Source: Defluviitaleaceae bacterium
GTDB lineage: Bacteria; Bacillota; Clostridia; Lachnospirales; WQUN01
Direction: 5' to 3'
Assembly: GCA_009779755.1 (NCBI GenBank)
Contig: WRDO01000029.1
Location: forward strand, 1 to 32,000
DNA length: 32,000 nucleotides
Part shown: in pieces, positions 4,421 through 32,000 of the stretch
Layout of the letters: every line of letters begins with the position of its first letter
How positions within the stretch are numbered: the stretch's first letter is position 1
Translations under genes and position numbers: made by a program
The notes under the pieces: generated by a model
Told to the model about the DNA's origin: nothing
Database searches by the model: none
What the model saw: the letters and a program-made list of their open reading frames with translations, nothing else

Positions 4421-4446
4421 AGCCCCGCGGCACGGGGATAACAATG

Positions 4447-4484
4447 TCGCCTCCGCGAAATACTAATGAGCGGAGGCGATTTTT
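4447..4484 (+). terminator. Rho-independent terminator whose 3' arm contains the selO Shine-Dalgarno sequence
   Basis: Perfect 10-bp stem tcgcctccgc (4447-4456) / gcggaggcga (4470-4479), followed by TTTTT (4480-4484) and then the ATG at 4485. GGAGG lies at 4472-4476. Confidence 0.8.
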
Positions 4485-5801: not shown

Positions 5802-5812
5802 CCACCTATTTA

Positions 5813-5821
5813 TGCTATACT
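5813..5821 (+). promoter_or_regulatory. Candidate extended -10 promoter element (TGcTATACT) for metG
   Basis: TG at 5813-5814 and TATACT at 5816-5821, about 68 nt upstream of the metG ATG. No convincing -35 element. Confidence 0.25.
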
Positions 5822-5888
5822 TCGGAAAATTATAAATACCTAACCTTGAATGCGATCCGCGTACAAGTCAAAAGGAGTATTCCATCCC

Positions 5889-11987: not shown

Positions 11988-12049
11988 ATAAAAATCCCCC
12001 ATGAGTCCCCCGCGTACAGCGGCGCGGGTAAGCGTTATGCGTCGGAAGG

Positions 12050-12080
12050 AACATAACCGCTTCCCCTGGGGAAGAGTCAA
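12050..12080 (-). promoter_or_regulatory. MerR-type promoter with a 19-bp spacer and a dyad operator
   Basis: Read on the minus strand: TTGACT (12080-12075), 19-nt spacer, TATGTT (12055-12050). The spacer contains the perfect palindrome CTTCCCC-n-GGGGAAG (12060-12074). Confidence 0.65.
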
Positions 12081-12094
12081 GGGGGAATTGAATT

Positions 12095-13489
12095 TTATAT
12101 ATGTTTTATGATTCCGTTTTCGACCAAAAACATCTCCAAAATCGTTTTTACATCGTCAAGGGACAAATCTTGGAAAAAGAAATGATTCAACCCGCACCGC
12201 ATATACGTAACCCCGTCGAAGGTAAAAAGCATACGGAACGCGCACCGTTTTTCGCCGCTTTCGGCGCCGCTCGCTTTGAATAAATGCGGGCTGCCGCCCT
12301 TACAGCAGGTACCGGGGTCGTCGAGTTTAAATACGTCGGGGAAGCGTCCGGCAAGTGCCCGCATTTTTTCGGGCGCTTTTTCAAAGGCGTGAATAAAGGA
12401 CACTTTGGTACCTATCTTTGCTTCGTGATGGTCGAAATGGCCCGCGTCCGGTTTGCGTTCGCCCTGCCGTACGAGCATAAACCGCTTCGAGCCTTTTTTA
12501 TAGAGGATGCAACCTTTTTCCATCGGTTCCTTGGGGTCGATGGCGAAGCCGTATTTTTTTGCCTCGGCATGGAGCCATTCCTGTACTTCCCTTAATTTGC
12601 TCGAAGCGTAATCCATCTCCGCGCGGAACACACGTTCATATTTCTGCCCGGCGGGGTCTTCGATATAACGATAGGAAAAACTGTGCAACGGCTTCCCCCA
12701 ACTCCAATCGGGCTTTGAAGTATCAATTTCGCTTACATAAGCGTGTAAAACCGTCATAACATACGGGTTGTCGGGATAAGTAACCCTAAATGCTTCGGAT
12801 TTTTTACCGTAACCGTCAAATAGGAACCCCATGCTTTCAAACCCGGCAATCATTAATTCCACTTTTTTATGCCTTTTTACACCCTTGTCGTTGAAAAACG
12901 CCTTTGCGTCAACCGTTACGGCGCCGTCATGATGGGAGCCGTTGAAAATTAAAGCGAACAGGATATCCACAACACGGTTGTAATAACCCTCCGTCGTTTC
13001 AAAGTCCGGATATCCCCACGCAAAGGGGTCTTTTTCAATGTCTTCATATATGGCGATTACGATTTGCTGCAATTCCCGAAACGCGGCGATAAATTCCTCA
13101 TTGGAAAGAACCGTCAGGTGCCTCGGGTCAGCTTGTACGTTATCGGGCATGGGGAGGATATCCTGCTTGCGCCGCGCCGCCGCGTCTTTCCCCGCTTGTT
13201 CGTACCCGCTGTGAAAATAGCCGTTAATAACGGAAGCCGCACTTTGTAACCCCGGTTCTTCCTTCTCAATATATTTCGCGTAATCAATCAGAAAACGCGT
13301 TGCGTTGCGGTAATGGCCGATAACCCCGCTAACGTTCCAAGTTTGCAAAAACGCGGTCAGCACATCGGCGGTTATGTCCGTTGTGATACATTTTTTCAAT
13401 TCGTTAAAAAACCAAAGCCTTTCCCCTATCAGTTTTTCGTTGCATTTCTTTTTTATTAAATAGTCATGGTACCTTTGCTTGTCCAACAT
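12095..13489 (-). CDS. Hypothetical protein, paralog family A (long form, about 465 aa)
   Basis: The ORF is open to 13555. ATG 13489 is preferred because of an AAAGGAA SD. It shares segments with ORF 16272-17567: YEDIEKDPFAWGYPDFETTEGYY vs YEDVYYHPAVYGLDPIDTEGYL, and a Cys-containing C-terminus ...RCAFRMLFTFDGVTYMRCG..F.FQDL vs ...MFNKIFYSCGGGTSFGVEYL. Confidence 0.7.
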   Translation of the reverse strand: MLDKQRYHDYLIKKKCNEKLIGERLWFFNELKKCITTDITADVLTAFLQTWNVSGVIGHYRNATRFLIDYAKYIEKEEPGLQSAASVINGYFHSGYEQAGKDAAARRKQDILPMPDNVQADPRHLTVLSNEEFIAAFRELQQIVIAIYEDIEKDPFAWGYPDFETTEGYYNRVVDILFALIFNGSHHDGAVTVDAKAFFNDKGVKRHKKVELMIAGFESMGFLFDGYGKKSEAFRVTYPDNPYVMTVLHAYVSEIDTSKPDWSWGKPLHSFSYRYIEDPAGQKYERVFRAEMDYASSKLREVQEWLHAEAKKYGFAIDPKEPMEKGCILYKKGSKRFMLVRQGERKPDAGHFDHHEAKIGTKVSFIHAFEKAPEKMRALAGRFPDVFKLDDPGTCCKGGSPHLFKASGAESGEKRCAFRMLFTFDGVTYMRCGLNHFFFQDLSLDDVKTILEMFLVENGIIKHI

Positions 13490-13544
13490 GTAACCATTCC
13501 TTTGCTCCAAAATATCCGTACGGGCAGCACCCATTGATAATCGG

Positions 13545-13555
13545 TATAATAGCAC
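13545..13555. promoter_or_regulatory. Candidate overlapping divergent -10 elements: TATAAT on the plus strand, TGcTATTAT on the minus strand
   Basis: TATAAT at 13545-13550 faces the sigma gene. Its complement region 13547-13555 reads TGCTATTAT toward ORF 12095-13489. Neither has a good -35 element. Confidence 0.25.
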
Positions 13556-13635: not shown

Positions 13636-15255
13636 GTGAACGAAATCTACGGTCTGCTCGGAAGCAAGGCGTTCCTGAAAAGTTTGTACGCCTTTGCGTA
13701 CAAACGCACCGCCAATTCCTATGAAGCGGAGGATTTATGCTCGGACATCGTTGCCGCCGTGCTTTCCGCGGCGCGCAGGAATTCCGACGTTACCCACCCC
13801 TACGCCTTCGTGTGGACAATCGCGCGGCGCGTCTACGCCGATTTTTCCGTAAAGCGTAAGCGCGGAGCAGACCATACCGCCCTTTATTCGGACGATACCG
13901 CAACCGGCTGTACCCAACCCATCGACGAATATATCGAAAACGAGGACGATAAGCTCCGCTTGCGGCGCATCCTGCGGGAATTCGCCTTCCTGTCGAAGAT
14001 ATACCGCGACGTGTGCGTCATGTACTACCTCGACGAATTGAAGGTGCCGCACATCGCAAAAAGGCTGGGCATCAGCCAAAACACCGTCAAACAGCGGCTC
14101 TGGTCGGCACGCGTTACTATTAAAAAAGGAGTGGGAAAAATGGACAACCCCGTATTAAAGCCCATCGAAATCGCCTTCATCGGCACGGGAAGCCCCGTGG
14201 GCAACGACCCGCGGGAACACGCCCGCCGCAGCTTTTCAAAGGCCCTCATCTACCTGTGCAAGGACACCGAACGCAGCGTAAAGGAACTCTCCGAAATGCT
14301 GGGCGTCCCTATGCCCTATGTGGAGGAGGAAGTATGGATACAAACCCACGGAACAAACGGTTACTACGGATTCCTGCGGAAAACGGAAAGCGGTAAGTAC
14401 ATTACCAACTTTATCCTCACGGACTATGATGATTATATGAAAGTAAGCGAAATGTACGGACGCCACGCCTACGTCATCGCGGGAAAATTCGACGCCTTCG
14501 TTAAAAAGCACGAGCAGACCATTCTGGGCCTGCCCTTCCTCAACCCGCAAACCGACACACGCCTGATAGCGTGGAAGCTCATACACGACTTGAATTGGGC
14601 ATTAATCGAACACGTGGGGAAAAGGGCGGAAGAAAAATACTTTGCACACATCACCCCCACCCAACGCGATTTTTATACCTTCGGCATCGCCATCAAGGAA
14701 GGGCAAACCTTCGACGCTCCTTTCTACGGCTGCGACGGCAACATCGCCCACGACATCGACGGATACAAGCGGGTTTTCATTTCCAACATCTACGGCAGGC
14801 GGTTGGAAAAACATTTCGGCTGCGGGGACGACATTTCCCAAGACAAACCCCTCCGCCTCACCATACGCGCCATCGGCGGGCTTCCCTTATCGTCCCTGAC
14901 CGAAGGCGAAAGGGAAACAGCGGCAAAGGCCATCGAAGCCGGATACCTTAAAAAGAAAAACGACACGTTCCACCCCCGTATCCTCGTCAGCGAAGCCGAC
15001 GTGTACTGGTGCGTCACCGACGCCTTCCTTAAGGAAATCGCTCACTTGATTGAACCCATGGCCGACGACATTCACAAAATGATAAAAAAATACCTGCCCA
15101 AACACATGGCAGGTGAATACAAACTTTTCAACCAGCAAACCTCTTTGGGTCTGCTGGACGGCATGTATGAAGAATGCATCGAACTCGGCACCATCACCGC
15201 TCCCGACAAAACCCCCTCCGCCGAAGGGGTGGTTATGATAGCAGAAAGGAAATAA
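13636..15255 (+). CDS. ECF-type sigma-70 family factor with a soluble C-terminal extension of about 370 aa
   Basis: GTG start with GGAG 8 nt upstream. Region 2 AEDLCSDIVAAVL...PYAFVWTIARRVYADF. Region 4 YRDVCVMYYLDELKVPHIAKRLGISQNTVKQRLWSARVTIKKG. The remaining roughly 370 aa have no TM segment and no recognised domain. Confidence 0.85.
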   Translation: MNEIYGLLGSKAFLKSLYAFAYKRTANSYEAEDLCSDIVAAVLSAARRNSDVTHPYAFVWTIARRVYADFSVKRKRGADHTALYSDDTATGCTQPIDEYIENEDDKLRLRRILREFAFLSKIYRDVCVMYYLDELKVPHIAKRLGISQNTVKQRLWSARVTIKKGVGKMDNPVLKPIEIAFIGTGSPVGNDPREHARRSFSKALIYLCKDTERSVKELSEMLGVPMPYVEEEVWIQTHGTNGYYGFLRKTESGKYITNFILTDYDDYMKVSEMYGRHAYVIAGKFDAFVKKHEQTILGLPFLNPQTDTRLIAWKLIHDLNWALIEHVGKRAEEKYFAHITPTQRDFYTFGIAIKEGQTFDAPFYGCDGNIAHDIDGYKRVFISNIYGRRLEKHFGCGDDISQDKPLRLTIRAIGGLPLSSLTEGERETAAKAIEAGYLKKKNDTFHPRILVSEADVYWCVTDAFLKEIAHLIEPMADDIHKMIKKYLPKHMAGEYKLFNQQTSLGLLDGMYEECIELGTITAPDKTPSAEGVVMIAERK

Positions 15256-16271: not shown

Positions 16272-17567
16272 TTATCTACCCTCCGAAAAATGACCCAAAC
16301 GAATTTTTATTAAATCGATTATAAAATCAAAATTATCGCGGGTCAAATACTCCACACCAAAGCTCGTCCCGCCGCCGCACGAATAAAATATTTTATTAAA
16401 CATTACTTTGGGGTGGCCGCGCGGGGGAGGCGCATATAAACAACCACATTCGCGGCAACGCTTGAAATGCTTGATGCAAAAGGTCTTCATGCCGTCGGCG
16501 TTGGGCAGGGTGTTAACTGCGCTTTCGAAGGCTTCGCGGTTTTCCGTATTCTTTTCGGGGCCGAAGTTCGGCCGTATGTTGGGCCAATGGAAGCTCCATG
16601 TTTTATCGATACAGACGGTGACTAAGTTGTTCGCATTCCCGGCTTTGTTGATATCCAAATGCTCTTTTCTTCCGTCATATCTGACAACCGTTTTGTCCTT
16701 GGATTTCCATTCCACCCGATTTAGTTTGCATTCCCGTTTTAGATTAAAGCCCGCGAGGAACGCATCCAAACGAATGATTTCCTCTTTATTCGCATCGTCA
16801 AGGGAGTACAGCGTTTCTTCGAAGGTGCATTTATAATCCGGCGCAAGCACGCGGAAATCAAGGTAATGGCACGCCTCGCTTAACGCTTTTGTTTTGTTTG
16901 CCTTTTGGTTCAAATCAACGCCTTTTAACAACTTTAACGCTTGGAACAGGTTGGGGTATTTTGTGTTCGTTATCACACAGCCGTCGTTATCCGGGGTGAT
17001 TACGAAAGACAAGCGCTCCATAAGCTGCGTGAATTTTTCCTTGTCGTAATTGTGGTGCTTTTTCAATAGGCTTAACAGCTTCTTGTATCCGTCCTTTGAA
17101 AAACAGACGCTTTGGTCCATTAAAACGTTATTTTCCGATGAAATTTTACTGCACAAAAAACGGAAAAAATACAGGCGGCTTTCGGTCCGCTTAAAGAACT
17201 CCAATGCCGCCTTATCCTCTTTGTTTATGGCTAATATAATCGCCTTGCTCCACGTCCTGCCGGATAAATACCCCTCGGTATCGATCGGGTCCAAGCCGTA
17301 TACTGCCGGGTGGTAATACACATCTTCGTATCCGTTCAATATAAGGTTATATAAATCCACACAAGCCGCTTTTACCGCTTTGTCATCTATTTTGGAAAGG
17401 CTAATATCGAGCGGAAACAACAACCTCCCCGCGTTCCATATGGCTCGATGGATGATGAACGGAAACACCGTTTCGTTTTTTGAAAAAATCATGAAGGCTC
17501 CCTTTAAAACATCGTTTGGCACTATTTCTTCATTTGTAATTATATCACATGATTTAAATAACGCCAT
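16272..17567 (-). CDS. Hypothetical protein, paralog family A (short form), with a Cys cluster CIKHFKRCRECGC...SCGGG
   Basis: 431-aa ORF. An alternative start at ATG 17492 has a much better SD (AAGGGAG). Homology to ORF 12095-13489 is described under that feature. Confidence 0.7.
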   Translation of the reverse strand: MALFKSCDIITNEEIVPNDVLKGAFMIFSKNETVFPFIIHRAIWNAGRLLFPLDISLSKIDDKAVKAACVDLYNLILNGYEDVYYHPAVYGLDPIDTEGYLSGRTWSKAIILAINKEDKAALEFFKRTESRLYFFRFLCSKISSENNVLMDQSVCFSKDGYKKLLSLLKKHHNYDKEKFTQLMERLSFVITPDNDGCVITNTKYPNLFQALKLLKGVDLNQKANKTKALSEACHYLDFRVLAPDYKCTFEETLYSLDDANKEEIIRLDAFLAGFNLKRECKLNRVEWKSKDKTVVRYDGRKEHLDINKAGNANNLVTVCIDKTWSFHWPNIRPNFGPEKNTENREAFESAVNTLPNADGMKTFCIKHFKRCRECGCLYAPPPRGHPKVMFNKIFYSCGGGTSFGVEYLTRDNFDFIIDLIKIRLGHFSEGR

Positions 17568-19247: not shown

Positions 19248-19625
19248 ATGGAGAGAAAAACAATTGCCGTGGTTGACGACCAACCGTTTATTTGCGATTT
19301 GGTAAAAAAACTGTTGGGTTCCGATTATGAAGTGCATACCTTTATGAATGGTAAAAGCATGGTTGACTTCGCAGCAAACAAACAGATCGATTTGTTTTTA
19401 TTGGATTACGACATGCCCGAAATGACGGGGTATGAGGTGTTGCTTGCCTTGCGGACCGGTAAGCATAACGCAAAGACACCTGCAATATTCCTTACAGCTG
19501 AAACCAACGAACGCATGAAAAAGGAAATGCTGGGACGCGGTGCCAACGATTACCTGAACAAACCCATCAACTCAACCGAGTTGCGCCAATGCGTAAAAAA
19601 ATATTTATCATCCGTGGGGGGATAA
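19248..19625 (+). CDS. Single-domain CheY-like response regulator receiver
   Basis: 125 aa with motifs VVDDQ, LFLLDYDMPEMTG, FLTA and KP. There is no output domain. Confidence 0.9.
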   Translation: MERKTIAVVDDQPFICDLVKKLLGSDYEVHTFMNGKSMVDFAANKQIDLFLLDYDMPEMTGYEVLLALRTGKHNAKTPAIFLTAETNERMKKEMLGRGANDYLNKPINSTELRQCVKKYLSSVGG

Positions 19626-19628
19626 AAA

Positions 19629-21344
19629 ATGCGCAAACTGATTACCGAAAAGATTGAACTGTGTGTTTCTTGCAACCGTTGTATACGGGCGTGTCCCGCG
19701 GACGGCGCGAATACCGCGGCCATACAAAGCGACGGCAGTATCGTGGTTCATGTCAACTATGAACGTTGTATCTCGTGCGGATCGTGTATTAACGCTTGCC
19801 ACCATGGCGCGAGGGATTATGAAGACGATACGATTACCTTCCTGAGGGATTTGGAACGGGGCGCCTCAATTTCCTTGATTGTGGCCCCTGCCAACCGTAT
19901 CAGCGGAATGGGCGGCCGTTTACTTACTTGGCTTAAGCATAAAGGCGTGCGCAAAATTTATGACGTTTCCCTTGGGGCCGATATCTGCACATGGGCACAT
20001 ATCCGCACGATCGAAAATGAAAAACCCCAATCGGTGATTACGCAACCCTGCCCGGCCGTCGTGAACTACATCCAAATCTTCGAACACGGATTGTTGAAAT
20101 ACCTGTCACCCGTACATAGCCCCATGCTGTGCACGGCGATTTATATGAACCAATACGAAAGGATCAGTGACAGCATCGCGGCTATTTCTCCTTGCATCGC
20201 CAAGACCCATGAGTTTGACGCGACCCGATTGGTCAAATACAACGTAACACTCAAAAAGCTGTACGACTACGTGCGGGAAAACAATATCCATCTTCCTATG
20301 GAGGAGACCCCCTTCGACCATATGGAATCAGCTTACGGGCGCTTGTATTCCATGCCGGGCGGCCTGAAGGAAAACATGCAGAATTATTTCGGTAAAACGC
20401 TGAGGGTGGACCAAGCCGAAGGTCCGGATATCGTATACGACGCGCTCAAAGCGTTCGCCAACGAAAGCACGGACTGCTTACCTACGGTGTTTGACGTATT
20501 AAACTGCGCTGAGGGTTGCAATTTGGGGACAGGCATTGAACATGCGTGCTCCCGTTTTAGGGCAAACCACATCATGGACGGTAATCGGAAGGAAGTGGTG
20601 GAAACTTTTGACGCGGACAAGTATAACGAGATGCTTGAGGATTTTGACAGTCGGCTTAACCTCAGCTCTTTCCTGCGCAGGTACACGCCGATAAATATCA
20701 AGCGCTTCAACATAAACCAAAACGACATCGATAAATGCTTCGAACGTATGCATAAATATAATGAAGTGGACAAGACCTATGATTGCGGCGCGTGCGGCAG
20801 GAACACCTGCTTGGAAATGGTAATGAACATCATCCGAGGATTTGATATACCGGAAAACTGTATCAAGATGCTTCACGACATCGTAACCGAAAAGCAAAAA
20901 ACCGTATTGGATATCGCCACTTCCAACTTAGAGAGTATGGACCTGCTTACCAGCGACATCGGCGAAATCATCAACAAATCCGCTTCTATTTCCGAGCGGG
21001 TCAGCACCCTCAACGAAGCGATCTTAAAATATAAAAAAATCGCGTCGGATATCGTCTCCCTTTCGTCCCATACGAATCTGATATCGTTAAACGCCGCAAT
21101 CGAAGCGGCACGGGCGGGCGTACACGGGCGGGCGTTTGCCGTAGTGGCGGAAGAAATACGCCAACTCGCCGGCAAGACAAAAAATACGTTGTCGGAATCG
21201 GAAGATATTTCCAAGCAAGCGATCAACTCCATCAAATCCATCATGGAAATGACGGGAAGCATATCCTCGGATATCGAAAAGGCGCATATCAGTATCTCCA
21301 TCGTATACCAGAGCCTTAATAATATCCTGGAGGGTGAAAAATAA
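19629..21344 (+). CDS. Soluble [FeFe]-hydrogenase-like sensory protein fused to a methyl-accepting chemotaxis (MCP) signalling domain
   Basis: Two ferredoxin motifs, [12 protein letters not shown] and [13 protein letters not shown]-cluster-like motifs TQPCP (Cys141, nt 20049), SPCIAKTHE and [11 protein letters not shown]386-x2-C-x4-C-x16-C411 motif (nt 20784-20861). C-terminal MCP hairpin [31 protein letters not shown]. No TM segment. Confidence 0.85.
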
Positions 21345-21352
21345 CCCGTCGG

Positions 21353-24130
21353 CTAACCGTTGGCGCGTTTTAACAACCAGAGCTCCACGTTATTTAAAAG
21401 TTCCAACGCGTCGTTGATAAACGGCGCGTTTTTTTCGTACACGCCGTTATAATCACCGTTTTTCGCCATATCCTCGATGATCTGCGCCTGTTTCGCCAAC
21501 ACCTCCGCGCCGATACATGCGCTGTTCCCTTTAATCGCGTGTATGAGCGTCGCGTAGTCCGACAGGGTTTCCGGGGTCAGTCCGCGCATCTTTTCCACAA
21601 CGTCGGGTACGTTTTGCAAATAGGATTGGAACGCGTATTCCAGCATTTCCATGCTGTTATCGTACAGGGCAAGCCCCGCGGTAATATTAACGCCGGGCAA
21701 TTCCCGCCCCGGTTCCTTTTCGTTGATAAACTTGTTGAGCATAATGTCCAGCAAACGCAGGTCTATGGGTTTGCTGAGGAATCCGTCAAAACCTTCGGCC
21801 AAAAGGAGTTTATCCTGCCCCGCTATGGCGTTTGCCGTGAATGCGATGATTTTGCCGCGATATCCCAGCTCGCGAATACGCTTAGCTGCCTCTGTGCCGT
21901 TCATTATGGGCATCATTTGGTCCATAAAAATGATATCGTATGCGTTTCCGCTTTTAACATATTCGATCGCTTCATAACCGCTTATCGCCGTATCGACTTT
22001 TAATTCATACGGCTTAAGCAGCATACTCGTCACGTGCAGGTTCATGGAGGAATCGTCCACGAGTAATATGTGGCCGTTTGGCATGATCGTCCTCGGGGTT
22101 GACCTCCTTTCCCGATATAGTGAGGTAGTTTGACGGAATTGGAAGGTACGCAGCTTGTGCGCAACATCTTCGCCGATTACGGCGGTGTCGGGAACGGTAC
22201 CCTGAGGCAAACGCACGATAAACGACGTGCCCTCGCCAACCTCGCTGTCAACGTCCATCATACCGTTCATCAAACCGATCAAATGGTTGGTAATGGAGAG
22301 TCCGAGACCCGTTCCCTTTATGACGGCATCCTCATGGAAGCGCGTATACATGGTAAACAACATACCGAGCTGTTCCCTTGTCATGCCGTGCCCGGTATCC
22401 TTTATACATAAAATCAATGCCGTATCGCCCGTAATCGAGTCCCGCTCGGTAAAGACGGTGAAGGTCACCTTGCCCGAATCGGTATACTTAAACGCGTTGG
22501 AAAGCAGGTTGTTTAGTATCTGCTTGATGCGGAGCTCGTCGCCGATCAACTTCGACGGAATGTTGGCGTCTACGTCCAATTCGAAGCGGATATCCTTGCC
22601 TTCGATACGGAGCATGTTTAATTGGACGCTGTCGTGGATCATGTTTGCCGTGTCGTACGGTCCGGGGTTGATTTCCATTTTTCCTTCTTCTATTTTCGAC
22701 AAATCCAATATATCGTTAATGATATGCAAAAGCATTTCGCAGGAGATAAACATTTTATCCAGTTCATCCTGTGCGTCCGGGGGGATTTCCTTATTGCGCC
22801 TTAATATTTCGGTAATGCCCATAACGGCGTTCATCGGCGTACGGATTTCATGGCTCATATTAGCGAGGAACCTGCTTTTATGTTGGCTTGCTTCGGTTGC
22901 CTGTATTTTTTCCGCGGTAATTTCGCCGGCGTTGGAAATCATTTGGTTAAACGCTTCCGTCAGTTTATAAACGATGATCACACCCACGACCAATAACAGG
23001 GCACCCGCGATGATCACGAGTATGACCGTCAAACGCATAGCCGTGCTTCCGGCCGAATACGATTTACTTTGGATATATGATTCGATAAACGAAGCCGGCG
23101 CGATGACTTCGTCGACATCCATGATAATAACGACACTCCACGGCAATGCTTGCAGGTGTTCGTGAATAATGATACGTTCCACGCCTCCGATCGAAAGGCG
23201 CTCGATACCGGATGTCCTTTCGATTATCCTTTCGGCGATCTCCGGAGGGTAGAATTCGGTTGCGAATAAATTCTCCCATACGATGCTTCCGTTGATATCG
23301 CGCCTCGGCCTGCCGGAGAATAAGACGTCCGCGTATTCGTTGACCATAAGGACGTGGCCCGTTTCACCGATTTCCGTGGAGATAAGGACGGCGCCCAAAT
23401 TATCCAGCATAATATTCATGCCCACCACGCCGGCTATGTTCCCATTTTCGTCATGATAGGGTTTTGTGCAGGAAATGGCATACATGCCACGGGTAAGATC
23501 CACGAATACGGGCGACCAAACGATATCATCCTGTTCAACCGCGAGTATGTACCACGGACGGGTCCTGGGTTCAAAAACATGGGTTTTCATATGGGAATCC
23601 CTGTCTACGGATATGGATATACCCGTTTCCGAACCTAAATAAACCGTCCTTGCGATATCGCTGTGGGTATAGATCGGGATTAAAATATCCTCGATATTTG
23701 CCATCAACATCAGTTCATCAAGGGTATCCGCTTCCGTCACATCCGCGGGAAGCCTTAGTTGGGAAACGATAACACCTTCGTTTGCCGGATCGGGGAAGTG
23801 TATATGCCTTTTTAAGAATCCTTCGGGCGCGGATTTGATTGTGGTCGCCACTTGGGATGCCATGGACACATACCCCATCACGCTTGACAATTTCTTATCA
23901 ACCAAATTGGCTTTGTTGTGCGCCAAAAGCGAGAGGTGGTATTCAGCTTGGTTTGTGAATTGTTGGTTGCTTTCGTCCGACAGGGTTTCGCTCAAATCAT
24001 GGATGATACCCATCGCGTTGTTGATAACGATCGCCAAACCGACCCCCATAACCGAAATTACGGTCATGACAAGGATGATTACGGTTTTGGTTGTTTGCAT
24101 CCTTAATTTGTGTAAAATCGCATTGTCCAA
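21353..24130 (-). CDS. Hybrid sensor histidine kinase: TM, double-Cache-like ectodomain, TM, HisKA, HATPase, REC, Hpt
   Basis: 925 aa. H-box [19 protein letters not shown]-boxes DTGHGM / GTGLGLSIT. Receiver IIFMDQMMPIMNG. Hpt HAIKGNSACIGA. Confidence 0.93.
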   Translation of the reverse strand: MDNAILHKLRMQTTKTVIILVMTVISVMGVGLAIVINNAMGIIHDLSETLSDESNQQFTNQAEYHLSLLAHNKANLVDKKLSSVMGYVSMASQVATTIKSAPEGFLKRHIHFPDPANEGVIVSQLRLPADVTEADTLDELMLMANIEDILIPIYTHSDIARTVYLGSETGISISVDRDSHMKTHVFEPRTRPWYILAVEQDDIVWSPVFVDLTRGMYAISCTKPYHDENGNIAGVVGMNIMLDNLGAVLISTEIGETGHVLMVNEYADVLFSGRPRRDINGSIVWENLFATEFYPPEIAERIIERTSGIERLSIGGVERIIIHEHLQALPWSVVIIMDVDEVIAPASFIESYIQSKSYSAGSTAMRLTVILVIIAGALLLVVGVIIVYKLTEAFNQMISNAGEITAEKIQATEASQHKSRFLANMSHEIRTPMNAVMGITEILRRNKEIPPDAQDELDKMFISCEMLLHIINDILDLSKIEEGKMEINPGPYDTANMIHDSVQLNMLRIEGKDIRFELDVDANIPSKLIGDELRIKQILNNLLSNAFKYTDSGKVTFTVFTERDSITGDTALILCIKDTGHGMTREQLGMLFTMYTRFHEDAVIKGTGLGLSITNHLIGLMNGMMDVDSEVGEGTSFIVRLPQGTVPDTAVIGEDVAHKLRTFQFRQTTSLYRERRSTPRTIMPNGHILLVDDSSMNLHVTSMLLKPYELKVDTAISGYEAIEYVKSGNAYDIIFMDQMMPIMNGTEAAKRIRELGYRGKIIAFTANAIAGQDKLLLAEGFDGFLSKPIDLRLLDIMLNKFINEKEPGRELPGVNITAGLALYDNSMEMLEYAFQSYLQNVPDVVEKMRGLTPETLSDYATLIHAIKGNSACIGAEVLAKQAQIIEDMAKNGDYNGVYEKNAPFINDALELLNNVELWLLKRANG

Positions 24131-25949: not shown

Positions 25950-26390
25950 ATGCTGCACCCATACGACGGGAAGGATTTCGAGGATTGCGTGGAGTTGTTT
26001 ATCGCGGCTTTTTCCGCGCCGCCGCTTAATTATCGGTTCACAACCCGCGGGAAAACCCGACGGTACTTAAGCGATATCACCCATATGCCGGGGTTTATCG
26101 GTTTTGTTTATAAAATCGGGGGGAAACCCGCCGCTTTTTGCTTCGGTGTTACCGACGATTATTTCCATGACCCGCAATACGACATAAAAGAATTCGCCGT
26201 CCGCCCCGACCTGCACGGCAAAGGTACGGGTTCCGCTTTCCTGTCCGCAATCGAATCCCATTTATCAAAAAACGGCGTCATCGCCGTTTCCTTGCAAACG
26301 TCCCGTTTAATCCCCGCTTGCGGCTTCTACAAAAAAAACGGCTTCGTCGAAAATGACGAAACCGTTACCCTATCGAAGTCATTAGGCTAG
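25950..26390 (+). CDS. GNAT-family N-acetyltransferase
   Basis: ATG at 25950 follows GGAGGGG. Acetyl-CoA motif VRPDLHGKGTGSAFL and C-terminal FYKKNGF. Confidence 0.8.
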   Translation: MLHPYDGKDFEDCVELFIAAFSAPPLNYRFTTRGKTRRYLSDITHMPGFIGFVYKIGGKPAAFCFGVTDDYFHDPQYDIKEFAVRPDLHGKGTGSAFLSAIESHLSKNGVIAVSLQTSRLIPACGFYKKNGFVENDETVTLSKSLG

Positions 26391-26782
26391 CTCGCGTTCG
26401 CGTTTGGGTTCGACCGCGCCAGCTTCATCGCTTCTTTCCACGTATCGCGGAAGAAACGGAACATACCGAGCACTTCATTTAGTATAACCGCGTCTTTTTT
26501 AAAGTTGGCCTCTACCAGCTTACGGAACATATAATCGTACAGGCTGTTAAATTCCTTTGATATAGGGTACTTGTGGTCGAGCGTAATTTGGAACTCGCGC
26601 ACGATATCCTGTACACGCAGTATCAATTCGTTGGCCTTGCCGATGTCCTTTTTTTCGATAGCCATCAAAGCCTGATTGCAAAACTTGATCCCACCCTCAT
26701 ATAACATAAGGGTCAATTCCTCTTTCGAAGCGGACATGATCGCGTCGTCCTGCATTTTTGTGTACGGATTTATTTTTACCAT
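26387..26782 (-). CDS. fliS: Flagellar export chaperone FliS
   Basis: 131 aa. SKEELTLMLYEGGIKF...A, ...KANELILRVQDIV.E and ...LYDYM match the FliS four-helix-bundle pattern. Confidence 0.9.
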   Translation of the reverse strand: MVKINPYTKMQDDAIMSASKEELTLMLYEGGIKFCNQALMAIEKKDIGKANELILRVQDIVREFQITLDHKYPISKEFNSLYDYMFRKLVEANFKKDAVILNEVLGMFRFFRDTWKEAMKLARSNPNANAS

Positions 26783-26800: not shown

Positions 26801-27154
26801 CTAACCCTTTTTGTCCAAAATGAGTCCCGCCATTTCCATCAGGCTTGCATGGGCGTCCAGGACCCTTTCCGGAGGGATTTCCCTGATGACCTCGCGCGTT
26901 TCGGAATTGTAGACCTTCACCATAACGCGGTTGGTGGCTTCGTGCAGGTTGATGCTCATGTGCCTCGCGTAGGTCGCAAGGGATTTGTTGAGCTCGGCGA
27001 CGGCCCGCTCCAGCTTTACTTCGCTGCGCTCGATCGCACGCGTCAATTCCGCTTCGTCTATCGACGGCACCGATTCCTGTTCCACGGGCACCGTTTCCGT
27101 GGTTACGGATACGGGCGGCGGCGGCGCGGGATATGCTACCCGGTTAACATCCAT
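26801..27154 (-). CDS. flaG: Flagellar protein FlaG
   Basis: The C-terminus INLHEATNRVMVKVYNSETREVIREIPPERVLDAHASLMEMAGLILDKKG is typical of the FlaG family. AGGAGG SD. Confidence 0.8.
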   Translation of the reverse strand: MDVNRVAYPAPPPPVSVTTETVPVEQESVPSIDEAELTRAIERSEVKLERAVAELNKSLATYARHMSINLHEATNRVMVKVYNSETREVIREIPPERVLDAHASLMEMAGLILDKKG

Positions 27155-27180: not shown

Positions 27181-27579
27181 TTATTTTTTGGTGTCAACAT
27201 ACCGGTAATGGTCGTCCGCCGCGCCCGTGTTATAGGCATCGCTTACATGGCGGGCCGTTTTCGCTTCCTTGATGGAGTATCTCATGTTGTCGTGTATACG
27301 TTTTATATGGATTTGATTTCGTTTATCCAATTCGCCGATTTCGGTTATGCGCTTCATGATGTCGGCGAACTCGGGGGTTGCGCGGGCTTCGTCGTTTAAT
27401 TCCCCGCGCAGCTCGGTCATTTCCGAAATCAATATCTCTCGCTCTTCGACCAAATCCGCGAAGGCTTCCGCTTCATCCCGTTCGTTTTCCTTTTTCCCGG
27501 AGAAGCATAATTCATCCGTTAATCGGTATATTTCGTCGAGCAGTTCACGGGCACGTTCCAATACGGGGTAATGGTCCAT
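27181..27579 (-). CDS. Small helical flagellar-locus protein, FliT-like (tentative)
   Basis: 132 aa, acidic coiled coil. TAATG overlap with the fliD stop. Its position in the fliD/fliS/flaG cluster and its helical pattern resemble Firmicutes FliT, but there is no diagnostic motif. Confidence 0.4.
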   Translation of the reverse strand: MDHYPVLERARELLDEIYRLTDELCFSGKKENERDEAEAFADLVEEREILISEMTELRGELNDEARATPEFADIMKRITEIGELDKRNQIHIKRIHDNMRYSIKEAKTARHVSDAYNTGAADDHYRYVDTKK

Positions 27580-30500
27580 TATTGGTTACCGAACATCCAT
27601 AACGAATCCATTTGCTGTTGTGACCGCGCCATCGCAATCTCCACCCGCGAGAACATGGCGTAAAGGTTATTTTCGCGCCGTATCAGCCATTGGGTCATAT
27701 TTTCCATACGCCTGTCATATTCCGCCATTTGTCGGTTGAGGCGGTTTTGATGGGAGGCATCGGCGTTGGCGAACCCGGCTATGGCGGTGATGGAGCCGTT
27801 CGTACGGCTTATGGCATTGTCGATGATATGGTTGAGGCGTTGCGCCAAACCTTCCTGCGGGATGAGGGCGCTGCGGCCCGCAACGGTGGAGGTGATTCCG
27901 CCGGGTACGGAATGGGTGAACAGGTTCATCACGCGATCGGGGTCTTCCTCCAAGGCGCTGCGCAACCTTTCCTCGTCGATGACCAGCCTGCCGTCGCGGT
28001 AAATGCTTTCGGTGGTGATGCCGATCTGGTGCAGGAACAGCGTATCGCCGTTTTCCATCCGCACGCCCGCGGTCATCCATTGCCGCATTTGGTTGTGTAT
28101 GTTGCGCAGGGTAGGGTCGCGGTGCAACAAACCGATACGTGCCTGCTCCTCCCAGCGTTCCACGTCTCTGTCGCTCAGGGCGTTACGCTCCGCGTCCGTT
28201 AAGGGTTCGAAAAAGGCGCGTGTATTGGTGCGCGGGCGCGGGGTGGAATGCATTAGGTTGATGCCGTTGATCAAATCGTTGTACGACTGTACAAAGTCGC
28301 GTATGGCGTTGAGGGTCTGGGTGGTGTCGCGTGAGACCTCGATGATAAAACGTTCGCCCAATGCTTGGGTCCCGTTTATCGTGACGGCTACGTTGTTGTG
28401 CGTAAACGTGTTGCCTTCAAAGTCACGCAGTATCGAAGACGTTCCCCCGTTTTCATAAATACGCACCTGCGCGTTTTTGCCTTGGGCGGACGTATTTTCG
28501 TCCCCTTCCGCGTTGAAGCCCAGCGTCTTCGCCAAGAACCCGCCCGCGTCCCGCGTTATCTTGATTTGGGAGCCCATACCGACGGTCTTGGACGTCAATA
28601 CATAACGGTTGCTTGTGCCGTCGAAGGCCATATTGACGCCGGCCGAAGAGGCATTGATACGGTTCATCACGTCGCGGACGGAATCGTTGGAATAAAGGTT
28701 TATGTTAACGTTATTGATCGTCATGCCCGGTGCTTGCGTATATACCGGCTCGTGTACGGAATTATGGACGGCACTCATGTTGTTGAGGTTCGCCGTGGTT
28801 GGCGTAAACGAATCGCCCACCGTCACTTCGCCATGTTCGTCGCGTTGTACGTAATGCCAAGCCGGCGATCCCGCGGTACCCATGTTAACCACTTCGAAGC
28901 GCGTCCCGACGCTGACGAAGGACATAACGGGTTTGCCGCATTCCGTAAGGGCGGGTACCTGACGGGGTTCCGTCTTTGCGAATACCCATCCGTTTTGGTC
29001 ATACGACGGCCATTCCTCGGGGACCAGCGCCGAAGGCAGTGGGGTAGCATCCCTGCGGACGACGCCCGACGGTTCGGGGTTTGGCGGCGTTAATCCGAGG
29101 AAGGAATCGATTTTAACGTCGTGGTTTACGGCGTTGGTGGTGCCGTTGGCGAAGCCGAGTTGTTCCAGCGCGTTCCTTCTTTCCTGTGCGGTGGGGGTAC
29201 CCGGTGCGGGTGTGCCCGCGTTGAGGCGTACCGTGTCGGTGGGGTTGTTTACGTAAAGGGAGAACGCACCCTCGTTATACATGATTTCCACCCGTTGCGT
29301 AGACGAACCGCCGCCCGTAACGGGTACATTCCCGAAGCGGTCACGCAGTTGCTCGTTTATCGCGGCCGCGACGCTTGTACCGTTGATCAAATGCTCCCCG
29401 GTCAGTGTAATGGTATGCGAATTGCCGTTAAGGGTGATGTTAAAGACATAAGCCGCGTTCGCACCCCCGGTATTAAAATCGAGGGCCGCCGGGTCGCTTT
29501 TGATGGTCATCACGGCGTTGGTTGCGTTATGGTCAAACCCAAGGAGTTCCAGCGCATCCTTGCGGAGGGGTTGGTCGGCGGTCATCGGCGCGTCGGTGCC
29601 TGTGGTCAGGCGTACCGTATCGTTGGGGCTTTGCGTATTCATTTTAAACGATCCCGGTTTGTCGTCCTCACCGGGGGTATAGGTGATAAACGCTTTCGGC
29701 TGCGCCGGGGACCCGTTGGCGGCGGGTACGTAACCGAAGCGTGCCAGCAATTGCTTGTTGATTGCGTATGCTACCATTTTGCCGTCGGTTAAATCCAAGT
29801 TAACCTCTTCGCCGTTGTATGTGATCACGTCCCCGCCGCTGAGCGTGACGTTGTGCATCGCACCGTTGAACGAAACGTTGAAGTTATATTCCACGTAACC
29901 GGGGTCGGATAGGTTGAATTTTTTGATATCCGCGTCCTTGCTTGCCATTTGGTTGGCGGCGTTGACGGTATTGTCGGCGAATCCCAACAGCCCCAGAGCG
30001 TTCCTGTGTTCGGGTTTTGCGTCGGTGGCTTCCGAAAACGCGCCGTTGGTAAGACGTATGACGTCGTTGGGATTTTGCGTATGAAACGCTAATTTGCGTT
30101 CACCGGGAATTTCCCCGGCTTGGAACGTTACGTACACCGGGGCTTGCGCCGGGGTGGTGCCGGTGGCGGGTATCGGGGGGAAGATTTCCGCCAGGCGCAG
30201 GTTGATAGCCGCCATGATACCCATTTCCCTGCCGGAAGGATGGCTAAGATGCGCTTGCGTGATGGCGACGCTGTGTACGTTGCCGTCATTCAGGCTGATA
30301 TTAAAATGGTAAACCGCGGCTTTATCATCATCCCCCGGTTTCGGGAAGAAGTCGTAGTTATTGATACCGGGGTTGGGGCCGGTTATGGGGTTGAAGTGCG
30401 CGTTGAGGACACTGTCCGCGCCAAAACCGAGCAAGGTTAAGGCGTTCCTTCTTTCGGGGATATCGCCGTCGGCGAGGGTAAAATCACCGGCGGTAAGTCG

Positions 30501-32000
30501 GATAAAATCGCCGGGGCTGGCGGAAGCGAAGACAAGGTTCCCGTCTTCGTCGAATTTGGCCGTTATCCCGAGCTCCGACAATTGCGCGTTGATCGCCGCC
30601 GCGATGCCCGCTTGCCTGCCTCCGGTATGATTTAGATGGGTTTGGTTGATGACGACGTTATGCTTGGTGCCGTCGTTAAGGCTCACGTTAAAGTGATAGA
30701 CCGCGGGGGCTTGGGGGGGATTAAATTGACCGATATCCGCGCCGTCGCCGCTGAGTGGGCTGCCCGCATCGTTTGCGTCGCCGTCGTTAAAACCCATGAA
30801 CACAAGCGCGTCCTTTTGTGCGGGGGTGGATGCGTTTGCGTCGGCGGTCGTCCCCGCATTAAAGGTCAATATATCGTTGGGGTTATTGGAATGCAGGGTG
30901 AAATTGCCGTCGTCGAAGGATATCTCAACCCTTCTTATGATATGTTCGGGCAGGTACGGCGGGGTGTTTACGGGGTCCCACATCGTGCCGAATGCCATAA
31001 GCTGCGCGTTGATCGCGGCGACGATGTTGTCCTCATCCAATTGCGTGCCGCTGAGTGTAATCGTTATGGGATTTTGGGTTACTTCGCTCATGTTGTGCGA
31101 TATGTTAAAGCTGTACGTCGCGGGCATGTGTTGTGCGGGGGCAAATCCGCTCACGTTTGTGTTGAAGCCCGTAAGGCTCCCTGTGACGTTGGCGGTATTG
31201 TTCGCGAAGCCGAGCAGATTTAATAAGTCCCTGTGCGCGGGGTCGTTTTCGTTCGCGGGTGAAACCGTACCCGTGGTGAGCCGAACGGCGTCGCCCGGTT
31301 TATGGGTCGAAAGGGCGAACCTTCCCGTCACGGGGTTAAACGCCATGGTTACCAATGCTCGGGGCGGGGTGCCGTCATCCATGAATCCATCTAATTGCCG
31401 TATTTGTTCGTTAATCGCCGTGGCCATGGTGGTTCCGCTTGTCAAGTCGTTCCCGCTGAGGGAGATATTCTCCGTTTTGCCGTTTAACGTGATATTAAAA
31501 TTGTATACCGCTCCCCATACCGCGCCGGGTTGCAAGGCGTTTACATTTACGGGGTTGCCGGATACGGTTTTTATCAAGTTGTTCGGGGTTTCCGTAAAAC
31601 CGAGGAACGCGAGGGCGTTCCTGCGGACCCGCCCGGTTTCGTCATCGGTTGAAGCCGCACCCGCGGTAAGGCGTACGGTATCGCCCGGGGGCAGCGTACG
31701 CAGGGTAAAGTCTCCGTTGTTATATTCCATCCATACCCTTGGGTCGCCGTCTTTTGCGGGAAGGGTGCCGTAATGGGTCAGCAATTGCGCGCTTATCGCC
31801 TTCGCGATCTCTTTCCCGCAGACCTCCCCGTCCGCGTCAAGCATCTGCGATTTGACCAGCACGATATTGCGGACGGGCTGCTCGTTACCGAGCTGTATGT
31901 TGAAGTGGTATTCTTCATTTTCAAAGGTAGGGTTTAAGGCGCTCAGGTCGGCTTTTTTACTTGACGGGATGTTGGTGGTACGTTGCGTTACCGGTCCATT
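27579..32000 (-). CDS. fliD: Giant flagellar filament cap protein FliD (HAP2), 5'-partial; the N-terminus lies beyond the window
   Basis: The reading frame has no stop from 32000 down to TAA 27579-27581, giving 1473 codons in the window. The listed GTG 31862 is internal. The last roughly 385 aa match the FliD core and C-terminal domain (MTINNVNINL..VMNRINAS.AGVNMAF; IRDFVQSYNDLINGIN; ..MAEYDRRMENMTQWLIRRENNLYAMFSRVEIAMARSQQQMDSL). Confidence 0.85.
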   Translation of the reverse strand, partial: NGPVTQRTTNIPSSKKADLSALNPTFENEEYHFNIQLGNEQPVRNIVLVKSQMLDADGEVCGKEIAKAISAQLLTHYGTLPAKDGDPRVWMEYNNGDFTLRTLPPGDTVRLTAGAASTDDETGRVRRNALAFLGFTETPNNLIKTVSGNPVNVNALQPGAVWGAVYNFNITLNGKTENISLSGNDLTSGTTMATAINEQIRQLDGFMDDGTPPRALVTMAFNPVTGRFALSTHKPGDAVRLTTGTVSPANENDPAHRDLLNLLGFANNTANVTGSLTGFNTNVSGFAPAQHMPATYSFNISHNMSEVTQNPITITLSGTQLDEDNIVAAINAQLMAFGTMWDPVNTPPYLPEHIIRRVEISFDDGNFTLHSNNPNDILTFNAGTTADANASTPAQKDALVFMGFNDGDANDAGSPLSGDGADIGQFNPPQAPAVYHFNVSLNDGTKHNVVINQTHLNHTGGRQAGIAAAINAQLSELGITAKFDEDGNLVFASASPGDFIRLTAGDFTLADGDIPERRNALTLLGFGADSVLNAHFNPITGPNPGINNYDFFPKPGDDDKAAVYHFNISLNDGNVHSVAITQAHLSHPSGREMGIMAAINLRLAEIFPPIPATGTTPAQAPVYVTFQAGEIPGERKLAFHTQNPNDVIRLTNGAFSEATDAKPEHRNALGLLGFADNTVNAANQMASKDADIKKFNLSDPGYVEYNFNVSFNGAMHNVTLSGGDVITYNGEEVNLDLTDGKMVAYAINKQLLARFGYVPAANGSPAQPKAFITYTPGEDDKPGSFKMNTQSPNDTVRLTTGTDAPMTADQPLRKDALELLGFDHNATNAVMTIKSDPAALDFNTGGANAAYVFNITLNGNSHTITLTGEHLINGTSVAAAINEQLRDRFGNVPVTGGGSSTQRVEIMYNEGAFSLYVNNPTDTVRLNAGTPAPGTPTAQERRNALEQLGFANGTTNAVNHDVKIDSFLGLTPPNPEPSGVVRRDATPLPSALVPEEWPSYDQNGWVFAKTEPRQVPALTECGKPVMSFVSVGTRFEVVNMGTAGSPAWHYVQRDEHGEVTVGDSFTPTTANLNNMSAVHNSVHEPVYTQAPGMTINNVNINLYSNDSVRDVMNRINASSAGVNMAFDGTSNRYVLTSKTVGMGSQIKITRDAGGFLAKTLGFNAEGDENTSAQGKNAQVRIYENGGTSSILRDFEGNTFTHNNVAVTINGTQALGERFIIEVSRDTTQTLNAIRDFVQSYNDLINGINLMHSTPRPRTNTRAFFEPLTDAERNALSDRDVERWEEQARIGLLHRDPTLRNIHNQMRQWMTAGVRMENGDTLFLHQIGITTESIYRDGRLVIDEERLRSALEEDPDRVMNLFTHSVPGGITSTVAGRSALIPQEGLAQRLNHIIDNAISRTNGSITAIAGFANADASHQNRLNRQMAEYDRRMENMTQWLIRRENNLYAMFSRVEIAMARSQQQMDSLWMFGNQ
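29127..32000 (-). repeat. Tandem array of diverged coding modules (324-438 nt each) inside fliD
   Basis: Module starts are defined by Y-x-F-N-[IV]. Units are 31910-31506, 31505-31116, 31115-30699, 30698-30312, 30311-29889, 29888-29451 and 29450-~29127, plus a partial unit at 32000-31911. Shared motifs: YxFN[IV][ST]LNG, I[TS]L[ST]G, AAINxQL, PxDx[IV]RLTxG and R[NKD]ALxLLGF. Confidence 0.85.

Follow-up and report, generated by a model that had tools for sequence, protein, structure and literature searches.

The window analysed here, i.e., a stretch of 32,000 nucleotides from a Defluviitaleaceae bacterium, ends inside a gene that resembles an ordinary fliD only at its 3' end and is far longer, and the locus raises the questions of whether this is a genuine flagellar cap gene, what its excess sequence consists of and what that sequence might do. 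Canonical FliD proteins are roughly 450 to 700 residues long (468 in Escherichia coli, 474 in P. aeruginosa and about 685 in H. pylori). In the window, the fliD frame occupies positions 27582 to 32000 of the minus strand; its translation gives 1473 codons, none of them an internal stop, and at base 32000 the frame has not yet closed. The full-length protein, of 1597 residues (P0001), is NCBI MCL2500684.1 from a Defluviitaleaceae metagenome-assembled genome, and the part encoded in the window matches it at 100%. The first 124 codons, corresponding to the FliD_N region, lie beyond base 32000, outside the window.

27579..32000, minus strand: C-terminal part of fliD, 1473 codons plus the stop codon (27579-27581), from a 1597-codon gene
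27618..28478, minus strand: FliD_C region, assigned from Pfam and Foldseek to the C-terminal portion of D2, the helices of D1 and the coiled coil of D0 at the end

Profile searches identified both ends of the protein. FliD_N (PF02465), which covers the D0/D1 helix and the first D2 strands, matched residues 13 to 121 of the full-length protein with 53.2 bits against a cut-off of 24.8, and FliD_C (PF07195) matched window residues 1175 to 1461 (E = 9.5e-41, 140.2 bits against a cut-off of 25.4). The NCBIfam FliD profile PRK07737 matched window residues 1089 to 1465 (E = 3.6e-59); its 201 bits fall under the whole-protein equivalog cut-off of 444 because the match is restricted to profile positions 130 to 490. 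As FliD_C and PRK07737 both match there, the last 385 or so residues form an ordinary FliD core, as proposed in an earlier, sequence-only reading. An AlphaFold model of the C-terminal 626 residues, a multi-domain model of low pTM (0.45), matched E. coli 5h5v in Foldseek searches with an E value of 1.8e-10 and a probability of 1.0, and the structures 9gnz (Salmonella), 6sih (Campylobacter), 5h5w and 5fhy were matched with the same probability. Pfam matches of the protein to DUF3383, DUF6303 and T2SSN were all under cut-off and were disregarded. The gene is a bona fide, intact filament-cap fliD of an uncultured Defluviitaleaceae bacterium with ordinary terminal regions, FliD_N and FliD_C forming the D0/D1 "legs" and the D2 plate.

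The operon order is fliD-orf132-flaG-fliS, with the following genes downstream of fliD:

27181..27579, minus strand: orf132, a small gene with a TAATG stop/start overlap with fliD; candidate FliT-like FliD chaperone
26801..27154, minus strand: flaG (Pfam FlaG, E = 1.5e-23; NCBIfam PRK07738, E = 9e-22)
26387..26782, minus strand: fliS, flagellin export chaperone (Pfam FliS, E = 2.8e-36; TIGR00208, 106 bits against a cut-off of 53.75)

The orf132 product matched FliT weakly (E = 0.005, under cut-off), and its search against NCBIfam returned sub-threshold noise only. The gene is kept directly after fliD in 17 related loci. A related contig, L083, has the same MutS2, fliD, FliT-like gene and flaG order, and its orf132 counterpart is also a weak FliT match. 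Upstream of the fliD ATG in L001, inspection by eye revealed a sigma-28-like TAAA-N16-GCCGATAA sequence and a GGAGGG ribosome-binding site; the spacing of the sigma-28 consensus is 15.

Between the two ordinary ends lies a tandem array followed by two single domains. The features between FliD_N and FliD_C are as follows, residue numbers being those of the full-length protein unless stated otherwise:

31920..32000, minus strand: linker from FliD_N and the N-terminal strands of D2 to module 1 (window residues 1-27), without module motifs; the module profile starts at residue 152
31590..31919, minus strand: module 1, residues 152-261, leave-one-out score 78.8 bits
31200..31514, minus strand: module 2, residues 287-391, leave-one-out score 90.9 bits
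30783..31124, minus strand: module 3, residues 417-530, leave-one-out score 64.6 bits
30417..30707, minus strand: module 4, residues 556-652, the shortest; passes Pfam Flagellin_IN
29973..30320, minus strand: module 5, residues 685-800, leave-one-out score 101.7 bits
29529..29897, minus strand: module 6, residues 826-948, leave-one-out score 96.5 bits
29145..29459, minus strand: module 7, residues 972-1076, leave-one-out score 97.6 bits
28725..29144, minus strand: "W-domain", residues 1077-1216 (140 residues), preceding the canonical IN domain; detected in relatives by jackhmmer
28509..28724, minus strand: canonical IN-motif domain, residues 1217-1288, equivalent to D3 or "Head 2" of solved FliDs

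The motifs YxFN[IV], AINxQL, vRLT and LGF locate exactly seven modules, with cores of 97 to 123 residues, start-to-start spacings of 135, 130, 139, 129, 141 and 146 residues, and linkers of 24 to 33 residues. Pairwise protein identity among them is 30 to 52%, the closest pair being modules 4 and 5 (52%), which are the neighbours singled out by the sequence-only reading as the most similar and short of full identity. Eleven positions (Y, F, N, A, I, P, D, G, L, G, F) are invariant across the seven copies. In a non-circular leave-one-out design, profiles built from six modules recovered the seventh at 65 to 102 bits (E = 6e-16 to 2e-27 with Z = 1e6). Motifs, alignment and profiles thus bear out the seven complete modules that had been proposed. 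In contrast, the partial eighth module of that reading is absent, since window residues 1 to 27 form a linker behind FliD_N, and recovery of the N terminus, where further modules had been thought possible, revealed none in the full 1597-residue protein.

At the DNA level the copies are 61 to 85% identical, over short stretches only, and Tandem Repeats Finder (TRF) reported no array in the gene. The duplications are therefore old and not copies created by assembly, in line with the earlier view that the modules are diverged and do not reflect a recent assembly duplication. At 30 to 52% protein identity, synonymous sites between modules are saturated.

A single-domain AlphaFold2 model of module 1 has a pLDDT of 86 and a pTM of 0.80. 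According to the modelling, the modules are predicted to be independently folding IN-motif domains of about 110 residues with the order beta-beta-alpha-beta-beta-beta(-beta)-alpha. The array starts 30 residues past the end of FliD_N and ends ahead of the domain that can be aligned with the 5h5v and 5fhy heads, and it occupies the site where the single D3 of solved FliDs is inserted into a loop of D2. Head 2 of the P. aeruginosa FliD is similarly inserted, as one contiguous segment, into a loop of Head 1 (PMC5072837). Amplification within this lineage gave rise to the seven copies, which then diverged to their present levels of identity with the fold-determining residues kept. We hold the identity and the architecture of this giant FliD to be highly probable: it is a FliD, its size is far above that of characterized FliDs, and the excess consists of diverged tandem modules with an IN motif, all as first proposed.

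In sequence, the canonical IN domain can be aligned with the heads of 5h5v (E. coli) and 5fhy (P. aeruginosa), and its AlphaFold model shows the order beta-beta-alpha-beta-beta-beta-alpha with a pLDDT of 76 to 89. The W-domain has no match in Pfam, and its AlphaFold confidence is low. The stretch of about 130 residues to which it corresponds had been described as unique; it does separate the array from the core, but jackhmmer found it conserved in related FliDs, with one copy here and in P0007, P0009 and P0011, two in P0006 and three in L003. The W-domain is clade-specific and, in sister lineages, has been amplified two to three times together with its IN domain.

We placed the protein among its relatives. 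The 73 complete FliDs from related genomes are 502 to 1297 residues long (median, 739), so that the giant FliD, at about three times the usual size, exceeds the next largest examined by 300 residues. It has eight IN-type domains (seven modules plus the canonical one) against one to five detectable ones per protein in 133 other FliDs; for hook-associated proteins (HAPs) and flagellins, numbers of IN motifs between one and five are on record (PMC9751261). The length survey shows none of comparable size among the related genomes, but the protein is less isolated than the earlier reading supposed, since multi-IN FliDs of 900 to 1300 residues are common in the clade. A module-profile search of 1.84 billion representatives gave eight matches at E < 1e-3, four of them other FliDs, from a library that shows cluster representatives only, given that the source protein itself is unlisted, and that may conceal further arrays. 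The remaining matches (P0003, P0005, P0008 and P0010) are repetitive, non-flagellar proteins and were set aside as spurious. The same module subtype is present in P0004, P0006, P0009 and L003, and in clustering the window modules form a group of their own, separate from the three modules of P0004 and from the one module each of L003, P0006 and P0009. The C-terminal half of module 7 is also conserved in P0007, a 72%-identical fragment that is cut off inside its last module. Metagenome scans with the module region and with an alignment of modules 4 and 5 found no second organism with a comparable array, and a scan of genome contigs with the single protein found no relatives. The sister lineages, including the closest relatives, amplified another cassette, the W-domain plus IN, and one relative has two tandem fliD genes at the corresponding locus. 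At one syntenic locus, the relatives thus form a series with one to seven modules, one to three W-domain plus IN cassettes, or duplicated whole genes.

What might such an array do? We propose, with a probability of about 0.6 for the explanation as a whole, that this fliD encodes a cap protein with a seven-domain array that assembles normally and carries adhesive arms. As with any FliD, the protein would pass unfolded through the flagellar type III channel, and its normal D0/D1 regions would assemble it into the usual pentameric cap. From the flagellar tip, each subunit would then project a nine-domain, beads-on-a-string arm tens of nanometres in length; the arm would point outward, given the position of D3 on the distal, outer face of the cap. 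Multivalent adhesion of the tip to particles, a gut surface or other cells would be the likeliest use of the five arms. Most likely, then, the protein functions as a cap, and its dispensable head has been extended into five long multi-domain arms that, by analogy, are plausibly adhesive. Taken separately, an adhesive function of the array is a tentative proposal, at well under even odds. We infer a gut setting for the bacterium; its relatives come from the guts of higher termites. A more specific version, which we find doubtful, is that the five nine-domain arms act as a long-reach, multivalent "grappling" adhesin for plant-fibre particles, gut cuticle or partner cells, with cassette amplification in sister lineages tuning reach and specificity.

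The array might instead be merely tolerated, head domains having been added by unequal recombination in a near-neutral, runaway expansion at almost no cost. Such expansion would be cheap because capping does not require the head and each filament has only some five copies of FliD, and head domains have indeed been found dispensable or replaceable (PMC8533109). The continuous lengths of the relatives' FliDs, from 502 to 1297 residues, the different cassettes in each lineage and the whole-gene duplication in another also resemble unconstrained tinkering. However, all seven copies retain an open frame and the 11 invariant positions despite their low identity, and every copy is recognized by the other six at 65 to 102 bits. 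This points to long purifying selection on every copy, which may be for foldability only, and we consider neutral expansion a rather unlikely account of the array.

The rapid turnover of head architecture between close relatives, together with the extreme narrowness of the module family (four other FliDs at E below 1e-3 among the 1.84 billion representatives), would also fit a variable surface shield, i.e., an exposed tip array under diversifying selection that alters or masks the cap against flagellotropic phages, grazers or competitors without binding any substrate. Nevertheless, FliD is not known as a target of any phage or host receptor in this group, and the three assemblies contain one sequence variant only, making a shield improbable.

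That the modules were amplified from the IN-motif (D3) domain of the head, as the sequence-only reading proposed, has moderate, not strong, support. Pfam Flagellin_IN (PF07196; gathering score, 22.7) matched module 4 with 29.5 bits and the core domain with 24.8 bits. When the modules were compared with 53 core IN domains by hhalign, the alignment was collinear over the whole domain (P = 3e-5, probability 47 to 64%), and the module and core AlphaFold models have the order beta-beta-alpha-beta-beta-beta-alpha in common. A central Ile-Asn pair in the helix is an index of the IN motif (PMC9751261); it is kept as A-I-N in six of the seven modules (2 to 7) and as RIN in the core, module 1 having A-I-S. 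Furthermore, the genuine matches of the module profile are all FliDs. These observations argue against recruitment of an unrelated domain into the FliD head with a convergent IN-like motif, which we consider improbable as well. Such recruitment would nonetheless account for the failure of the module profile to match the core IN domain significantly, for the Flagellin_IN results on the other modules (12.9 bits for module 2 and no reportable match for modules 1, 3, 5, 6 and 7) and for the weak Foldseek match of the module to the solved D2-D3 region of FliD (5h5w; TM 0.40, E = 1.7). Foldseek searches of the module against PDB and BFVD gave nothing at E < 0.1, the top weak fold matches being the mavirus penton and phage tail or baseplate proteins. 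Without a significant match to solved or viral predicted structures, no ligand can be suggested and no function transferred.

Lastly, although repeats in a short-read metagenome assembly are a classic source of misassembly and the three assemblies with identical sequence may share one read set, it is very unlikely that a collapsed or expanded repeat, a chimera or gene decay conceals a shorter or broken true gene: the copies are at most 85% identical over 27 nt, without a TRF array, so that no assembler k-mer could bridge them, the gene runs for 4.8 kb without a stop or frameshift, its GC content is even throughout, and the identical protein is found on a 159.7-kb ENA contig, an 8-kb Logan contig (DNA 100% identical) and a 41-kb JGI/IMG contig.

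The giant FliD shares with canonical FliD/HAP2 proteins (5H5V, 5FHY, 9GNZ, 6SIH) the FliD_N and FliD_C termini, the D2 plate, a D3-type IN domain, a core structural match at E = 1e-10 and the linked flaG, fliS and FliT-like genes. Canonical FliDs hold one D3, whereas here seven IN-type domains and the W-domain are added before it. Enlargement of the head by repeated IN-type domains is also seen in the multi-IN FliDs of Clostridia, such as L003 (1297 residues, from a Defluviitaleaceae metagenome-assembled genome of a Labiotermes gut), P0004 (1088 residues, three modules) and the Caproicibacterium amylolyticum FliD (P0052, 1030 residues), but these are smaller and have fewer such domains (1 to 5 versus 8). 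Extra FliD domains have been described as "not unusual," and D4 of C. jejuni was proposed to relate to heparin binding (PMC7316729). The D4 (D4/D5) domains of Campylobacter and Helicobacter FliD are likewise lineage-specific globular additions with a proposed role in adhesion (PMC7316729); unlike the modules, they do not form a tandem array at the D3 position.

Export and assembly have been shown for giant flagellins whose domains were duplicated in tandem (PMC6248924). Those of Oceanospirillales (Bermanella, Oleibacter), with tandem "DE" domains, are axial proteins of the same out-and-back topology (PMC6248924), and like the giant FliD they exceed 1000 residues because an outer domain at the tip of the hairpin was duplicated in tandem. 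They differ in being flagellins, with thousands of copies per filament, and in having two copies, not seven, of a domain of another family. A flagellin of Sphingomonas sp. also contains an IN-motif domain and was reported to bind the polysaccharide alginate (PMC9751261). It matches the FliD core model weakly (E = 0.028), and its beta-domain resembles the finger domain of phage T4 gp11, in keeping with the weak matches of the module to phage tail and baseplate proteins; however, it is no cap protein, its domain is present in a single copy, and it has no significant match to the module itself.

The giant FliD is thus an extreme case of a known tendency and not a new class of system, and no long-standing open question is touched by it. 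None of the FliDs in the sets examined is larger; it has eight IN-type domains, and its extended IN module is a compact, confidently predicted domain of about 110 residues that has no solved close relative. The natural series formed by the relatives could be used to study the amplification and the binding of exposed flagellar domains. Variation among FliD heads, their dispensability for capping and their role as adhesins in some pathogens are already known, and the giant FliD shows how far such freedom can reach.

The gene at 27582-32000 on the minus strand of the window reads as 1473 uninterrupted codons, and its frame remains open where the window ends, in agreement with the sequence-only reading. 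A database search recovered the complete protein, P0001 (MCL2500684.1, recorded as [quoted passage not shown]), which has 1597 aa and is 100% identical to the window part. Its 124 residues outside the window correspond to the FliD_N region (PF02465, aa 13-121, 53 bits), and with this N-terminus in place the total was seven modules. An ordinary FliD core had been assigned to only the last ~385 aa, and this held, since Pfam FliD_C (E 9.5e-41) maps to window residues 1175-1461 and PRK07737, a FliD model of the Bacillus type, to residues 1089-1465. An AlphaFold model of the last 626 aa matched solved FliD structures at probability 1.0 (5h5v, E 1.8e-10; 9gnz, 6sih, 5h5w, and 5fhy). The analyses show that the FliD is intact and its assembly regions are normal, with nine domains inserted at the D3 site. 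The GC content of fliD is 55-57%, versus 47-54% in neighbouring genes, with positive GC skew along the gene; an Ala/Gly/Pro/Thr-rich composition probably accounts for the high GC content rather than foreign origin.

Features of the insertion (gene on the minus strand; full-protein residues unless stated; modules located by motif searches and alignment)
152-261: module 1
287-391: module 2
417-530: module 3
556-652: module 4
685-800: module 5
826-948: module 6
972-1076: module 7
1077-1216 (window 28725-29144): W-domain, located by iterated profile
Window aa 266-275, 677-683, 823-831, 951-958, for example: N-x-T-N-A-V-like linker motif, after each module

The modules follow each other with a start-to-start period of 129-146 aa and linkers of 24-33 aa. 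They share 30-52% pairwise identity (highest for modules 4 and 5) and 11 invariant columns. In leave-one-out searches, six-module profiles recovered the remaining module at 65-102 bits in all seven cases, showing that the repeat is far beyond chance; motif searches and alignment gave exactly the seven complete modules first proposed. The additional partial module was ruled out, as the first 27 window residues form the linker behind FliD_N. A short N-x-T-N-A-V-like motif recurs in the segments following LGF (ANNTANV, DNTVNAA, HNATNAV, NGTTNAV), with DRATNAV as its form in the related fragment P0007; it may mark a site of modification, or else a conserved strand between the domains.

Tandem Repeats Finder detected no arrays in the fliD DNA, and the best short inter-module DNA stretches are 61-85% identical. 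Thus, the duplications are old and unable to confuse an assembler, as had been argued against a recent assembly duplication. The same protein was called in an ENA 159.7-kb contig, a Logan contig with identical DNA across 7988 bp, and a JGI/IMG 41-kb contig with the start called four codons earlier, although these assemblies may have reads in common.

The array starts 30 residues past FliD_N and ends before the core IN domain (aa 1217-1288), which aligns with the head domains of Escherichia coli 5h5v and Pseudomonas aeruginosa 5fhy. This places it where D3 is inserted, which is on the outer, distal face of the cap. In P. aeruginosa FliD, head domain 2 (residues 104-230) is inserted into head domain 1 as one contiguous loop (PMC5072837). 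The W-domain between array and core had no Pfam match and was modelled at low confidence by AlphaFold. It had been described as a unique stretch of ~130 aa; an iterated profile found one copy in each of the related FliDs P0007, P0009, and P0011, two in P0006, and three in the FliD of L003, a Defluviitaleaceae MAG contig.

That the modules were amplified from the head IN/D3 domain is moderately supported, not proven. AlphaFold2 with a seven-row alignment modelled module 1 confidently as one domain (pLDDT 86, pTM 0.80), ordered beta-beta-alpha-beta-beta-beta-beta-alpha; the core IN domain reads beta-beta-alpha-beta-beta-beta-alpha in the 626-aa model, an order that we count as shared. Pfam Flagellin_IN (cut-off 22.7 bits) matched the core domain (24.8 bits) and, among the modules, only module 4 (29.5 bits), with a weak match in module 2 and none reportable in modules 1, 3, 5, 6, and 7. 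The central Ile-Asn pair, which defines the IN motif (PMC9751261), is kept in 6/7 modules, and profile-profile comparison with 53 canonical core IN domains of relatives was collinear end to end (P = 3e-5). In contrast, the match between the module profile and the core domain fell short of significance, and Foldseek found no significant match of the module model in PDB or BFVD (E. coli FliD D2-D3, E 1.7, TM 0.40).

In the sequence TAATG, the stop codon of fliD overlaps with the start codon of an ORF of 132 aa (27181-27579, minus strand), followed downstream by flaG and fliS. The ORF matched FliT weakly (E 0.005, below cut-off) and is kept immediately 3' of fliD at 17 related loci, as well as in L083, a relative's contig; it probably represents a divergent FliT-type chaperone family serving these large FliDs. 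Upstream, contig L001, which carries the same gene, has a divergent mutS2 and a GGAGGG ribosome-binding site. TAAA-N16-GCCGATAA (L001 9927-9954, beyond the window), spotted by eye only ~45 nt 5' of the ATG, resembles a sigma-28/SigD promoter, with N16 against a consensus spacing of 15. No gene for flagellin occurs within 10 kb.

Elsewhere in the window, a CheY-like receiver gene (19248-19625, plus strand) precedes a gene for a 571-aa protein (19629-21344, plus strand) that carries 4Fe-4S ferredoxin motifs and a methyl-accepting chemotaxis signalling domain as well as Fe_hyd_lg_C (E 8e-24), the H-cluster domain of the [FeFe]-hydrogenase large subunit. From its domains it looks like a hydrogenase-type chemoreceptor, possibly H2-sensing; such fusions are classed as sensory [FeFe] hydrogenases. 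Adjoining it is a 925-aa hybrid histidine kinase gene (21353-24130, minus strand; dCache-HisKA-HATPase-REC-Hpt); another encodes 1390 aa (248-4420, plus strand; HAMP-PAS-HisKA-HATPase-REC-Hpt). A 539-aa protein (13636-15255, plus strand) combines ECF-type sigma regions 2 and 4, both in the N-terminal 160 aa, with an extension of 380 aa that matches no family, and a 616-aa protein (10230-12080, minus strand) joins a MerR N-terminus to a long C-terminal part of no known family. Two minus-strand ORFs, of 486 aa (12095-13555) and 431 aa (16272-17567), had no Pfam matches.

The window FliD would be exported and assembled as a pentamer like other FliDs, each subunit projecting a beads-on-a-string arm from the flagellar tip. 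In Gram-negative bacteria, FliD requires only its D1, and its head can be replaced by a larger one (PMC8533109). Giant flagellins likewise grew by tandem duplication, and for these, export and assembly are known (PMC6248924). FliD is an adhesin in several species. A heparin-binding role was proposed for D4, an extra domain of Campylobacter jejuni FliD (PMC7316729). By analogy, we tentatively favour an adhesive role for the array, at a probability of roughly one in three. The main competing reading is that a dispensable region expanded almost neutrally; the retention of fold-determining residues in 7/7 copies despite deep divergence argues for selection on foldability at least. As a third option, the array might form a variable shield.

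A scan with a FliD_C alignment against one genome per species (GTDB) yielded 80 loci, the closest in Defluviitaleaceae MAGs from higher-termite guts (sample codes Lab288, Emb289, Co191, Nt197, and Th196; PMC7024585). Its 73 complete FliD ORFs span 502-1297 aa (median 739), and metagenomic relatives 540-1088 aa. Counted by two profiles, all counts being lower bounds, IN-type domains among 134 FliDs numbered one in 92, two in 24, three in 10, four in 5, five in 1, and none in 1, with eight in the window FliD only. Across 1.84 billion representative proteins, searched exhaustively by profile, the module subtype occurred in only four other FliDs (three copies in P0004, one each in P0006, P0009, and the fragment P0007). 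In a neighbour-joining tree without support values and an identity matrix, the window's seven modules cluster together, distinct from the three of P0004 and from those that occur singly in relatives, which fits independent amplification in each lineage. The closest relative, L003 (WQZS01000002.1; FliD of 1297 aa, ORF end near 6849), carries one module and then three cassettes of W-domain plus IN domain, and P0006 (1042 aa) two such cassettes; sister lineages amplified different head cassettes. L083, from the same ENA series, has two tandem fliD paralogues (3867-5624 and 5697-7910, plus strand; 585 and 737 aa) at the syntenic mutS2/fliD/FliT-like/flaG locus, making whole-gene duplication a third route of FliD diversification here. 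HAPs and flagellins are reported to have one to five IN motifs (PMC9751261), and domain insertions in FliD have been called "not unusual" (PMC7316729). At 1597 aa, the protein is indeed a giant above the surveyed range; however, the length and domain surveys show that head enlargement by repeated IN-type domains, already acknowledged in the literature, is common in the clade. The window FliD is the extreme member of a known series of FliD heads enlarged by IN repeats.
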